Virus record (IMG/VR): IMGVR_UViG_3300032330_001422
Location: 1-59,526 of that record
DNA: 59,526 nucleotides
From: a virus
Lineage: Duplodnaviria > Caudoviricetes
Direction: 5' to 3' (one strand)
Each line of letters begins with the position of its first letter. The stretch's first letter is position 1. A program made the position numbers and the translations under genes. The notes beneath the pieces are model-generated. The model worked only from the letters and a program-made list of their open reading frames with translations, searched no databases and was not told the origin of the DNA. Positions 4,842-8,844 of this stretch are shown here, one piece after another.

Positions 4842-4872
4842 AAAACCCCGCTAAATTAATAGCGGGGTTTTT
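4842..4872. terminator. bidirectional intrinsic terminator ending the tRNA array and the Ig gene
   Basis: AAAACCCCGCTA...TAGCGGGGTTTTT between convergent units. Confidence 0.85.
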
Positions 4873-4884
4873 ACTAACTTTAAA

Positions 4885-4961
4885 TGGTGGATCAAACCGG
4901 ACTTGAACCGATAACCGAAAAATTATGAGTTTTTTGCTCTAACCAATTGAGCTATTGATCC
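4885..4961 (-). tRNA. tRNA with CAU anticodon (Ile2 or elongator Met)
   Basis: GGATCAA/TTGATCC acceptor, AAAAA-CTCATAA-TTTTT anticodon arm, GTTCAAGTC T-loop, encoded CCA. Confidence 0.9.
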
Positions 4962-4968
4962 ATTAAAA

Positions 4969-5061
4969 TGGTGGCTCCGTAGGGAATTGAACCCTATCAG
5001 TACCCAAATCTAGGGATTATACAGATTATAAGTCTGCCCATGCACCATACATCACAGAGCC
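4969..5061 (-). tRNA. tRNA-Ile(UAU) with long variable arm
   Basis: GGCTCTG/CGGAGCC acceptor, GCAGA-CTTATAA-TCTGT arm, extra arm CCC-TAGATTT-GGG, GTTCAATTC, CCA. Confidence 0.85.
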
Positions 5062-5229: not shown

Positions 5230-5241
5230 ATTTAAATTCAA

Positions 5242-5537
5242 ATAGGAAGGACTAATGATTACCTCCAAGTTTCAGAATCACGACTGGTTATTCATCCACA
5301 GTCCACACGGTTAATTACTCCTTGTGTTAATGACTGATGGGATTTTGTTTTCCCCACAACGGGCTACGATTTATCATATATTTTAGCTACGGTCCCGTTA
5401 CGCTCAAATTTGGGGTTGAACGACCTCAAATTCTCCATAGACTTACCCTCCATGATTCTTACTCCAACCAATATACAACGTTTTTCAACACCATATATTG
5501 TGCGTTACAACTAAACTAATCGTTGTTCCGCCACTAT
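5242..5537 (-). ncRNA. candidate ~300-nt structured RNA of unknown class
   Basis: No credible ORF; complementary ends and nested helices (5274-5282 with 5451-5459; hairpins 5407-5432 and 5469-5500); sits between tRNAs directly after a boxA-like element. Confidence 0.65.
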
Positions 5538-5543
5538 CTTAAA

Positions 5544-5555
5544 TTGTTAAAGAAC
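5544..5555 (-). promoter_or_regulatory. boxA-like antitermination element
   Basis: GTTCTTTAACAA(TTT), close to the rrn boxA TGCTCTTTAACA; same 12-mer at 8476-8487. Confidence 0.65.
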
Positions 5556-5565
5556 TATCAAAAAA

Positions 5566-5641
5566 TGGTAGGCGTGAGTGGATTCGAACCACCGCTTTAC
5601 AGATTTTAAGTCTGTTGACTCTTCCGCTGGTCTACACGCCC
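5566..5641 (-). tRNA. tRNA-Leu(UAA) with short variable loop
   Basis: GGGCGTG/CACGCCT acceptor, ACAGA-CTTAAAA-TCTGT arm, 5-nt variable loop, GTTCGAATC, CCA. Confidence 0.9.
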
Positions 5642-5650
5642 ATTTAAAAC

Positions 5651-5709
5651 TTTTTAAAGAACCGTCACTTACTACTCTTTCATCTTATCACATCTTTGTT
5701 TGTTGTCAA
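5651..5709 (-). promoter_or_regulatory. sigma70-type promoter, AGTAGTAAGT leader and boxA-like element
   Basis: TTGACA-16-TAAGAT (TGn extended), then AGTAGTAAGTGACGGTTCTTTAAAAA. Confidence 0.75.
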
Positions 5710-5727
5710 GCATCTACTTTATAAATA

Positions 5728-6684
5728 TCAATTACTATGCTGAATCCAATTATTTGGCGTTGTACATTTTGTTGAATCTGTAAACACTTTTGTTACTTTG
5801 CTCAGTGTATCAGACGAAATATGTGCATCATAATACTTAATTGTATAATTAGTATTGTGTCTTAAAGTTTGTACATGACACGTACAATATTGAGAAAATA
5901 CATTTGAAAATACTAAAGAATCTTCTTCATATAGCTCTACCCCAAACACATTTTTGCAATAATCGCCTTTTGCTGCTAAAAAGATGTATTCATTTTTTGA
6001 AGAATCATAATACACTTCAGCTTGATTGTTTACCGAAAACAAATTTCTGCTTTCAAAGACGGAATCTTCTTCGTTTTTTAATTCAATAACATCTTTATGT
6101 TTGTGTGACAATAGGTACACCAATGTTTCATTGGACTCTAATCTTTCTTTTTTAGCGTAGAACTCAATAAAATTTAATTTATCCGTTGTAAAGAACGATG
6201 TCAACACATCAAGATTGCCATAAAAAAATGTTACTTGATAAGACTTTTCTATTCCCAATGTATAAAAATAAACTTTTGTGTAATCTAATTCATTGAAAAT
6301 AAAATTATAGTGATTTTTGTTAATCAATACATCTAAATCAATAAAGTAATAAAAATCATAACCAATATTTTTACAATAGTTTAATGTACTTTGATATAAT
6401 TTAACAAAATAATTTGAATACAATACTTTTCTATTATTTATATTTCTAAAATAAATTTTGTTGCCAATCGCAAAATAAGGATATAAACCATCGGTTAAAT
6501 AATGTGAATCACATACATGATTTACTGTAATATAATTTTTTACGCCGTCAAAACTTTCCATATAATCAGACGATGCTAATATCACATCAATATTCTGATT
6601 ATTGAATAATTCAATTTTCTCTTTTAATAGAGATTTTCTATATGCATTATTTGCAAAATTAGAAATTATAACACATCGTTTCAT
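5728..6684 (-). CDS. hypothetical protein, glycosyltransferase-like, inserted in the tRNA array
   Basis: Start moved to ATG at 6684 (the longer ORF reads through a tRNA fragment); YFIDLDV DxD-like motif. Confidence 0.6.
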   Translation of the reverse strand: MKRCVIISNFANNAYRKSLLKEKIELFNNQNIDVILASSDYMESFDGVKNYITVNHVCDSHYLTDGLYPYFAIGNKIYFRNINNRKVLYSNYFVKLYQSTLNYCKNIGYDFYYFIDLDVLINKNHYNFIFNELDYTKVYFYTLGIEKSYQVTFFYGNLDVLTSFFTTDKLNFIEFYAKKERLESNETLVYLLSHKHKDVIELKNEEDSVFESRNLFSVNNQAEVYYDSSKNEYIFLAAKGDYCKNVFGVELYEEDSLVFSNVFSQYCTCHVQTLRHNTNYTIKYYDAHISSDTLSKVTKVFTDSTKCTTPNNWIQHSN

Positions 6685-6747: not shown

Positions 6748-6824
6748 TGGTAGCTAGGGTCAGATTCGAACTGACACTGTTTCGTTTTTGAAACGAATGC
6801 CTCCTGCCTTTGGGCTACCTAGCC
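6748..6824 (-). tRNA. tRNA-Leu(CAA) with short variable loop
   Basis: GGCTAGG/CCTAGCT acceptor, TTCGT-TTCAAAA-ACGAA arm, 5-nt variable loop, GTTCGAATC, CCA. Confidence 0.9.
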
Positions 6825-7454
6825 ATTTAAAATTTTAGATTCAATCAACTTATAAACTCTACTATAGTTTCTTCCGTTTTCAATTCCTAAATTTTTTAGA
6901 GTTTGATTAATATTTCCCTTACATTTATGATACATATCAATCAATTCATTGTCATCTATTTTTTTAATAGAAGTAGATTTTATATTTTTTGCACAAAAAG
7001 TATCTGTTTGACTATGACAATTTGGACATAAAAATCTTAAGTTTTCTAATCTTTGGTCAGTTGGTATACCATTTATATGGTCTAATTGTAAATTTAATTT
7101 TTTATTATTCCAAAATCCCAAATTAGAACATAATGTACATTTATACTCAATTAAATTTTTTTTCTTTATTAGATTTCTAATGTATGATTTTGAAAATTTA
7201 CTATTCTCTATAAAGATTTCATTTTTATTTCTTTCAGATAATCTATCATCATCCAATAAAGTTTTACCTTTGCTCCATAACATGCCTGTAAAATGTGAAA
7301 TATCAATATTAAGATTTGATATTTCTTTTTTTATTCTAGAGTGGGTTGAACCACTATATGGTATACCAAGTCTTTTAATTACTTGGGTATAAGATAAAGA
7401 TTTTTTTGTAGCATCTATCAAATCAGACTCAGTATAAATTTGTTTTTTCCTCAT
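6819..7454 (-). CDS. free-standing HNH homing endonuclease
   Basis: CTLC...LQLDHING...NLRFLCPNCHSQT; start taken at MRKKQ; stop codon lies in the first nucleotides of tRNA-Leu(CAA). Confidence 0.92.
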   Translation of the reverse strand: MRKKQIYTESDLIDATKKSLSYTQVIKRLGIPYSGSTHSRIKKEISNLNIDISHFTGMLWSKGKTLLDDDRLSERNKNEIFIENSKFSKSYIRNLIKKKNLIEYKCTLCSNLGFWNNKKLNLQLDHINGIPTDQRLENLRFLCPNCHSQTDTFCAKNIKSTSIKKIDDNELIDMYHKCKGNINQTLKNLGIENGRNYSRVYKLIESKILNG

Positions 7455-7530
7455 ACTAATAAATAGTATATTGGAAGACATAAATACAAATTATTTTGTG
7501 TCTGCTAAAATTTCAATGAACTATTAAAAA

Positions 7531-7624
7531 TGGTGGTTCCGCCCGGATTCGAACCGAGACCGTGCTCAAATCTAGAGCTTATCAACGTTATAAGCGTTGC
7601 GTTCTACCGTTAAACTACGGAACC
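7531..7624 (-). tRNA. tRNA-Ile(UAU) with long variable arm (second copy)
   Basis: GGTTCCG/CGGAACC acceptor, CAACG-CTTATAA-CGTTG arm, extra arm GCTC-TAGATTT-GAGC, GTTCGAATC, CCA. Confidence 0.88.
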
Positions 7625-7704: not shown

Positions 7705-7815
7705 AATTGTTTTGTCAACATCTAAAATTGTCGCCGGTCTTTTAATTGGCGCTTTAATCCTCTGGTGGGGAACCAACTCAAGTGTCCTATTAATCGGATA
7801 TTCTCCGGGCGTAAA

Positions 7816-7898: not shown

Positions 7899-7974
7899 TG
7901 GTCGCTCGTCTAAGAATCTCACTTAGTTTCCAATGGTTATGAGCCATCGTCAGATAAATAACCTGCCACCAGCT
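7899..7974 (-). tRNA. degenerate tRNA(CAU), initiator-like or pseudo-tRNA
   Basis: AGCTGGT/ACGAGCG acceptor with two mismatches, GATGG-CTCATAA-CCATT arm, CTAAG-TGAGATT-CTTAG T-arm, CCA. Confidence 0.62.
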
Positions 7975-7980
7975 ATTAAA

Positions 7981-8305
7981 TTGTGTTGGTTTCGATAATA
8001 CACAGAGGTTTATTTCAACGAAATAGCGTTTTTTATTGACTCACAATTATCATTTTTTTCTCAGGTTTGTACGCTTTTCAACGTTCCATCAATCTGATAC
8101 TCTATTTTCCACCAACTAAAATTATCAAAAGAACTATTAAAAATTGTGTTGGGTGTAATTATTGAATACTTTGTCCACCCAACAAACAGAGTATACCATA
8201 TGCTAACCCCGCAACCAAGAAGTTTTTTAAGAGACTTCCAACTCTAGGGGCATTTTGGTTATTTGCCCTCCACCAGAGTGTTTTTCTTGCTGATACACTC
8301 AAACA
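7981..8305 (-). ncRNA. candidate structured RNAs (about 7981-8117 and 8144-8305)
   Basis: ORF-free; closing stem GTTGGT/ACCAAC; hairpins GAGTGT/ACACTC, GGGCA/TGCCC, GAAGT/ACTTC, TGTTGGGTG/CACCCAACA; boxA-like element between them. Confidence 0.45.
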
Positions 8306-8538: not shown

Positions 8539-8646
8539 TTCTTTGTTCTTTGTTGGTGACCCCCTTCGGTTAAAGGCCGAGGCGGTTCCGCCATACGTAG
8601 ATGTTCTAGAGGAGTGCTTCTCCCACCGTGCTTAAAGAACAAAGAA
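8539..8646 (-). ncRNA. candidate small structured RNA enclosed by a perfect 13-bp inverted repeat
   Basis: TTCTTTGTTCTTT...AAAGAACAAAGAA flanks GC-rich hairpins (GGAG/CTCC, GGCG/CGCC, TCGG/CCGA); has its own promoter. Confidence 0.55.
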
Positions 8647-8763: not shown

Positions 8764-8844
8764 TGGCGCTCCGGGAGGGAGTTGAACCCCCATTTTCATC
8801 CAATTATGCACTTAGGGCTTAGAAGTCCCCGCCATTACCGGAGC
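8764..8844 (-). tRNA. D-armless tRNA-Arg(UCU)-like RNA with long variable region
   Basis: Perfect GCTCCGG/CCGGAGC acceptor plus GCCA, GGGGG-TTCAACT-CCCTC T-arm, GGGGA-CTTCTAA-GCCCT arm, only 7 nt (TAATGGC) in place of the D-arm. Confidence 0.7.

Follow-up and report, generated by a model that had tools for sequence, protein, structure and literature searches.

Known manA, cage-forming and permuted RNAs

The closest described relative of the RNA reported here is manA (RF01745), which entered the literature as a riboswitch candidate located in potential 5' UTRs (PMC2864571). A single manA copy lies between two tRNAs in S-CREM1 (PMC9964418 and its record), and base pairs of manA that are missing from the database structures have been described (bioRxiv 10.1101/2020.02.04.933952). 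According to the available part of a cryo-EM preprint, manA forms octamers, decamers and a 60-mer, mostly based on pentamers, with the intersubunit kisses L5-L7', L8-L9' and L3-L8' (bioRxiv 10.64898/2026.07.01.735769). Helix numbers are used here in the order of the Rfam manA model, not of the figures in that preprint; by this model, a single manA is arranged as P1, P2, core, P3, P4-P7 multiloop, P8, P9 and P2.

GOLLD and ROOL are phage RNAs found near tRNA islands that assemble into nanocages through kissing loops, and many GOLLD members exceed 800 nt. For OLE and GOLLD, loops that switch among palindromes have been taken as support for pairing across chains, and such cages have been suggested to hold tRNAs, ribosomes or proteins (all in the consulted part of bioRxiv 10.1101/2024.12.08.627333). 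Natural circular permutations, in which the same fold is kept and the ends are moved, have been described for the hammerhead, twister, 5S rRNA, group II introns, tmRNA and SRP; manA and nested permuted copies are absent from the permutation list in the part of that source available to us (PMC10085705).

A double-manA RNA in a phage tRNA operon

The window, the whole 59,526-nucleotide stretch of DNA analysed here, belongs to a large phage that encodes a family-B DNA polymerase. Judged by this enzyme, its closest cultured relation is Microcystis phage Mel-JY01 (41.5% identity), which has no clear copy of the RNA (best E 0.46). The initial annotation had placed at 5242..5537 a structured phage non-coding RNA of about 300 nt, of unknown class, inside a tRNA operon. 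Such an RNA is indeed found between tRNA-Leu(UAA) and two tRNA-Gly-like genes, with a core at 5241-5538 (minus strand) given by homologue boundaries and a full span that probably runs from 5543 to about 5240, slightly wider than first proposed. Its class, on the other hand, is not new, as the RNA is built from two manA-type units. The operon comprises the following features:

5682..5709, minus strand: sigma-70-type promoter with an extended -10 (consensus match only; predicted driver of the operon)
5566..5641, minus strand: tRNA-Leu(UAA), upstream neighbour of the RNA
5544..5555, minus strand: boxA-like motif directly 5' of the RNA (further copies at 5662 and 8487)
5240..5543, minus strand: double-manA RNA, whole gene (homologue boundaries; contigs of 4/4 RNA runs)
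5229-5157 and 5148-5073, minus strand: two non-canonical tRNA-Gly-like genes, downstream neighbours (by eye and fold)
4842..5061, minus strand: tRNA-Ile(UAU), tRNA-Met and the terminator-like hairpin (4872-4842) that ends the operon

Read along the minus strand, the operon thus runs from the promoter-like site through tRNA-Leu, the RNA, the two tRNA-Gly-like genes, tRNA-Ile and tRNA-Met to the terminator-like hairpin, which was seen by eye and is absent from the list of the terminator scan. The RNA is crossed by a single open reading frame of at least 40 codons, which lies on the opposite strand and has 60 codons.

In Rfam, manA is the only recurring match of the RNA. The search that the initial annotation had proposed gave no match at cut-off: the window matches manA twice, with 15 and 9.5 bits against a gathering cut-off of 55.2 bits. 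Homologues score 20-32.5 bits (best E 3e-5), and no member tested reaches the cut-off; two of them, L399 and L180, have no manA match at E <= 0.05, and L399 carries textbook manA core words in both units. None of three virus records searched holds a manA above cut-off. By score and by layout the RNA is not manA, but it is clearly built from it.

Models of GOLLD and ROOL give no match to the RNA at E <= 10. The double RNA resembles both in being a phage RNA near tRNA islands and in its predicted kissing-loop cage, and GOLLD in its palindrome-switching loops, without belonging to either family; its core is different, and it falls well short of the many GOLLD members above 800 nt (compare the consulted part of bioRxiv 10.1101/2024.12.08.627333). 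Models of group I introns, RNase P RNA and tmRNA do not match it either, although that search does detect tmRNAs and a group I intron at other places in the homologue loci. RNase P-like and group-I-like readings made by eye were discarded, as they have no model match and need pairings that clash with covarying helices. No description of a double or permuted manA was found in the literature on manA, GOLLD/ROOL and phage structured RNAs; four family words are absent from six searched supplementary files of PMC10690425, whose files 1, 2 and 4 may hold it as an unnamed candidate.

Homologues and their distribution

Homologues were searched for with a pattern that places the manA core word just before the last hairpin, an order absent from single manA, and with variants of this pattern, which together gave at least 355 loci. 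Profile searches found homologues in at least 154 of 356 sequences, the window included, with redundancy among them. After partial and duplicate loci (29 and L368) had been trimmed, and nine had been re-anchored by hand and put back, at least 84 distinct full-length RNAs remained: 36 of type A, to which the window belongs, 20 of type B, 26 of type C and two of type D. They are about 230-300 nt long, with pairwise identities down to 39%, and come from freshwater-type phages, giant phages and Lak megaphages. One type-C member matches 15 Lak phage records at 90-100% identity and, in part, a 735-kb phage; the RNA is an unannotated gene in all 15 Lak records matched. Two giant-phage records searched whole contain one clear copy apiece. 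The RNA gene is real and widespread.

Other searches were less productive. With blastn, the window RNA gave eight pieces, all at chance level, among 50,697 phage records, and a type-B member gave no match among phage records. A GTDB scan returned 13 matches, none homologous, with a single exact pattern that bacterial copies could escape, and two early patterns built on the window gave no useful matches.

The region 701-745 of locus L014 holds a copy without the outer 5' half, in which tRNA-Leu runs straight into the inner unit; either a deletion or an error of assembly could explain it. Type-B copies have Pistol ribozymes and tmRNA genes as neighbours (L003:469-528, L007:766-833), and other manA-like layouts with the core word close to the final hairpin are seen in L404, L166 and L240.

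The genetic context bears on manA's first proposed role. A cis-acting regulator or riboswitch would agree with the position of manA in potential 5' UTRs that made it a riboswitch candidate (PMC2864571, as far as the source was available). The double RNA, unlike manA, has no protein gene 3' of it in its operon, where tRNA genes and a terminator-like hairpin follow instead, and a same-strand tRNA or tmRNA lies within 400 nt of the RNA in 69 of the 84 homologues, some of the other 15 having short flanks. A riboswitch is on these grounds highly improbable. Proximity to tRNA genes, together with phage origin, is a trait that the double RNA shares with manA (S-CREM1).

Architecture of the outer and inner units

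The elements of the RNA, in 5' to 3' order of the outer unit with the inner unit enclosed, are:

5534..5538, minus strand: outer P2 5' strand, pairing with 5245-5241 (pairs 5535-5244 and 5536-5243 covary, E = 0.00)
5501..5533, minus strand: outer manA core, with UG, 3-bp helix, GAAUAA-type internal loop, P3 hairpin and UAA
5518-5512, minus strand: outer L3, docking partner of inner L8 (L3 kiss statistics)
5469..5500, minus strand: outer P4, a single long hairpin closed by a GAAA/GAAGA-type loop (sequence and fold)
5445..5465, minus strand: covalent link from outer P8 to inner P3, 5' strand, pairing with 5288-5267
5440..5445, minus strand: inner core, UAA and a 3-bp helix strand (partner 5296-5294 comes later)
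5407..5432, minus strand: inner P5-type hairpin (covariation on the structure-blind alignment)
5358..5399, minus strand: inner P8, whose loop docks twice (on outer L9 through 5377-5374 and on outer L3 through 5373-5369)
5337..5357, minus strand: inner P9, with a short variable loop lacking a docking segment
5299..5336, minus strand: inner P2 with reversed strand order, 5336-5332 / 5303-5299 (blind-alignment helices)
5326-5304, minus strand: cap, the manA P1 hairpin on inner P2, its loop with the palindrome UAAUUA
5288..5298, minus strand: inner core 5' element UG-NNN-GAAUAA (invariant columns; part of the search pattern and thus selected for)
5246..5266, minus strand: outer P9, with an 11-nt loop and docking segment 5258-5255 (covariation, L9 kiss)

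The outer unit follows the order in which manA begins and ends, namely P2, core, P3, a long hairpin and the base of P8, and then P9 and P2; in the window it is without P1. Its core and P3 pairs covary on the structure-blind, anchored and 18-member alignments. The P4 hairpin stands where manA has its P4-P7 multiloop, and its stem varies among relatives yet stays complementary, with one pair at E = 0.10 in type B.

The inner unit consists of the same parts in another order: P3 3' strand, UAA with the helix strand, hairpin domain, P8, P9 and P2 3' strand, followed by the cap hairpin, P2 5' strand, core word and P3 5' strand. Since the core strand at 5440-5445 comes before its partner at 5296-5294, this order carries the mark of circular permutation. 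Pair 5440-5296 covaries (E = 0.00) on an anchor picked partly by complementarity, and the 3-bp helix is 100% paired on the blind 18-member alignment. The link between the units likewise covaries at 5446-5287 and 5447-5286 (E = 0.00, anchored alignment), and its 3' strand measures 17-23 nt in all 84 members. By its strand order, the inner unit reads as a manA whose ends have been joined, which has been reopened at L3 and which is seated inside outer P8.

If the ends of manA were joined, P1 would be expected as a cap, and the loops found there agree: 79/84 members have a palindromic tetramer or GACG in the cap loop, as do 87/93 single manA RNAs in L1, and two rare loop variants are common to both. 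The P5-type loop is a Watson-Crick palindrome (e.g. GGCC, GUAC or GAUC) in 60/84, GGCU in 5/84 and GUUC, which is not self-complementary, in 12/84 including the window; the remaining seven were judged by eye, five as palindromic and two as not. Both the P5-type loop and the cap loop switch among palindromes across members. Inner P9, now lacking an L8 partner, is missing in 23/84 and short and variable in the rest.

Searched with a model of the inner stretch, 15 of 22 single-manA loci give a hit at the corresponding position, the model's eight best hits among them; the loci had been chosen by a pattern that shares a 6-base word with the model. The hits are individually weak (best E 0.05), four of 20 control loci were also hit, and the manA of S-CREM1 was missed. 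The GGU/ACC stem of the inner hairpin aligns, weakly, with both L5 and L7 of single manA, as if the L5-L7 kissing pair had also been fused into one inner hairpin.

The double RNA shares with manA the core UG-NNN-GAAUAA/UAA-NNN, here present twice with covarying helix pairs, together with P2, P3, P8 and P9, the P1 loop repertoire (in the inner unit only, as the cap) and the docking of L8 on both L3 and L9, which here takes place across units. It differs from manA, a single core of about 190 nt in the standard 5'-3' order, in having two cores in a chain of about 230-300 nt, with the inner one circularly permuted, in the replacement of one L8-L3 contact by a covalent helix, and in the reduction of the P4-P7 multiloop and L5-L7 kiss to single hairpins, one of them with a palindromic loop.

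Covariation and folding

Folding energy by itself is modest evidence, with an MFE of -75.5 kcal/mol (z = -1.6) that is matched by 11 of 200 shuffles, whereas the comparative evidence is strong. The comparative fold reaches -65.9 against an MFE of -77.7 kcal/mol, with the kisses left uncounted. Covariation was assessed by an R-scape-like procedure (G-test, tree-based null, 20 simulations). When the 26 type-C members are aligned without regard to structure, ten pairs reach E <= 0.10 and all fit the model, spanning helices of both units, the link and one L3-L8 kiss pair; an eleventh pair (E 0.25), inside L9, is non-canonical. Type A alone, at 87% identity, gives no significant pair, and type B gives two. 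The anchored alignment of all 84 members yields 13 pairs at E <= 0.10, at each of which 77-84 of the 84 rows are canonical; two anchors were picked with complementarity, and the core pairs there hold partly by construction. In 18 diverse members aligned with MAFFT, again structure-blind, pairing holds in 90.8% of cells, compared with 65.5% for shuffled rows and 33-46% for slid controls, over which the structure is favoured in that it was drawn from two of the rows. In this alignment 49 of 60 pairs change on both sides, and one kiss pair is out of register and paired in 5/18.

The covariation among homologues that had been suggested as a check is therefore present, with helices of both cores covarying across the 84 members, and the architecture is well supported. 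Every helix word listed in the initial annotation occurs at its place. Covariation supports the stems AACGGG/CCCGUU, UGGGG/UCCCA, CAGUC/GACUG and the capped ACAC/GUGU, along with the hairpin AAUUUGAGG and, for the central helix, its inner end. Outside the counted covariation set, two further elements show complementarity in the window as well as in relatives, namely the GAAA hairpin (5469-5500) and the helix AGAAUCAUG. The pairing of the ends stands in part: the helix 5538-5534/5245-5241 covaries, and the proposed GAUUA/UAAUC pairing finds no support, GAUUA being a variable local stem and UAAUC a near-invariant loop.

The initial annotation had also drawn attention to GGAG motifs, through which the RNA might act as a CsrA/RsmA sponge or bind the anti-Shine-Dalgarno sequence. 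All five motifs are present (5465, 5451, 5436, 5321 and 5266), a count reached by 0.1% of 2000 shuffles and well above the 1.1 expected. CsrA prefers GGA in hairpin loops, and sponges of the CsrB/RsmY type carry many conserved GGA motifs in such loops, a feature that the double RNA lacks. In the fold supported by covariation, three of the five motifs in the window lie largely in stems and none is centred in a hairpin loop. The count is not conserved: it ranges from 0 to 4 in types B-D, with no more than two in any of the 20 type-B members or in 18 of the 26 type-C members, and is two in 13 of 36 type-A members. A sponge or anti-Shine-Dalgarno role is extremely improbable.

Docking loops and the proposed assembly model

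Inner L8 carries its L3- and L9-docking segments side by side, and both match the outer unit. For the L3-L8 kiss, cognate partners form a mean of 3.96 Watson-Crick pairs against 2.26 with shuffled partners, a difference reached in none of 100,000 permutations. At least four pairs are formed in 22 of 26 representatives with less than 80% identity, and in 17 of 18 at a 70% cut; the representatives are not fully independent, and their tree is poorly resolved. The kiss is weak, with 2-3 pairs, in three of five type-B representatives. The L9-L8 kiss is fully complementary in 80/84, in three versions (63, 15 and 2 members), with one mismatch in 4/84 and with its middle three pairs invariant outside type D; the switch between versions may reflect few events, on a tree that is mostly unresolved.

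The single-manA comparison set comprises 93 RNAs (of 18 candidates checked, 14 passed the cut-off). Their L8 has two complementary segments: the one for L9 changes together with that loop, and the one for L3 keeps a single form in 89/93. Four loci, L088 (286-459), L106, L120 and L138, contain divergent single manA RNAs, of which two lie between tRNAs. The L088 RNA has its two docking segments next to each other in L8, an arrangement like that of the double RNA, and may resemble the ancestor.

Together, sequence and covariation establish that there are two cores, that the inner one has its strands in reversed order and is capped by P1, that a covalent helix runs from outer P8 into inner P3, and that inner L8 pairs with L3 and L9 of the outer unit. 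With a probability of roughly 0.65, we propose that this RNA of two manA-like cores is cut from the tRNA transcript and self-assembles into a ring or cage made of RNA only. In this predicted assembly, tRNA-processing enzymes would release the RNA from the operon transcript, as its position suggests. The covalent helix would then stand in for one L8-to-L3 contact between subunits, and the free inner L8 would dock on the outer unit of the next molecule, an exchange of contacts that we consider probable. Such a link, combined with docking on the next molecule, would give rings of four or six manA units and never pentamers, and the two palindromic loops would add two-fold contacts joining the rings.

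The same two-core fold could instead close on itself, with inner L8 folding onto its own outer L3 and L9 to give a monomer or, at most, a dimer through the palindromic loops. Covariation fits intramolecular and intermolecular kisses equally well, and in the monomer the partners are covalently tethered. A two-unit ring would, however, need a turn of 180 degrees per unit, whereas the manA assemblies reported in the available part of the preprint are based on pentamers, with one octamer form (bioRxiv 10.64898/2026.07.01.735769), and the narrow length range of the link (17-23 nt, 3' strand) is close to our own estimate for a stacked P8-kiss-P3 span. These points make the closed monomer unlikely.

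Expression and end junctions

Between 0.29 and 0.47 of the region's sampled words are held by 18 RNA runs with riverine or freshwater labels, and contigs from all four RNA runs compared, from four studies, cover the RNA. Contigs cannot reveal its strand, ends or level; in run X1 the contig depth, about 15,000 over the RNA and about 16 next to it, is only a hint and cannot rank genes.

In one RNA run, four junction forms join 5542/5543 to 5240 with depths of 4.7-7.6. They agree with the predicted ends and may represent circles or library artefacts, as they come from one study without a DNA control. These 3'-to-5' junctions, together with the high conservation of unpaired core bases in both units, would be expected of a catalytic or self-processing RNA with two active cores, engaged in ligation, circularisation or tRNA processing. 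No ribozyme family matches the RNA, however, the junctions have the low depth and single origin just mentioned, and the group-I-like P7 pairing conflicts with the covarying P3 and P9 helices, so that catalysis appears quite improbable.

Descent, possible role and implications

Common descent of the double RNA from manA is very probable, either through a single insertion of a circularised copy or through a tandem duplication that was then rearranged. The double RNA is like the natural permutations described so far in that the fold is kept and the ends are moved, and unlike them in that the permuted copy is nested in an unpermuted copy of its own family, at a reported intersubunit contact (compare the available parts of PMC10085705 and bioRxiv 10.64898/2026.07.01.735769). 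Permuted self-insertion would be an unusual route of RNA evolution. We lean slightly towards the wider reading that a subunit interface was frozen into a covalent helix in this way, turning a five-fold cage into an even-membered one whose assembly contacts are all mapped by covariation alone, and that this arrangement has been kept from freshwater to Lak phages.

Until now, manA cages have been known only from the test tube, and the RNA itself was long listed as a possible riboswitch. Two units fused at a reported subunit contact, with the second contact kept by compensation and the partnerless arm lost, are evidence of selection on assembly, and conservation from freshwater to Lak phages would, if the wider reading is true, count as evolutionary evidence for the formation and importance of manA-type cages in vivo. 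Even-membered rings and programmable docking loops are predicted, and the double RNA offers a natural pre-joined two-unit tile for RNA nanostructures. As to its role in infection, we suggest, speculatively and with considerable doubt, that the cage might support phage translation by holding or shielding tRNAs or an RNA-handling protein.

Other features of the tRNA region

The boxA-like motif occurs in three minus-strand copies, all inside the tRNA region, where it opens tRNA transcription units, and a loose form of it precedes the RNA in 52 of the 84 homologues. The motif, at 5555, 5662 and 8487, is named here after the boxA antiterminator of rRNA operons (rrn), which it resembles. A literature search found no paper on boxA in phage tRNA arrays. 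Downstream of a boxA-like word, the minus strand also holds a 135-nt A/U-rich non-coding segment with paired ends (7985-8120), which has no Rfam match at E <= 2.

Both tRNA-Gly-like genes that follow the RNA (5229-5157 and 5148-5073, minus strand) are missed by ARAGORN and Rfam; they have odd anticodon or T arms, and one reads ACC. Further tRNA-like genes without an ARAGORN call lie on the same strand at 7900-7975, 7725-7805, 8560-8630 and 8767-8844; Rfam gives a score for the last of them alone, 27.5 bits, which is below cut-off. The tRNA-Ile(UAU) genes at 4969-5061 and 7531-7624 (minus strand) each have a long extra arm, and the array is interrupted, on the minus strand, by an HNH-like open reading frame at 6819-7481, its motif recognised by eye, and by another of about 320 codons at 5728-6681.
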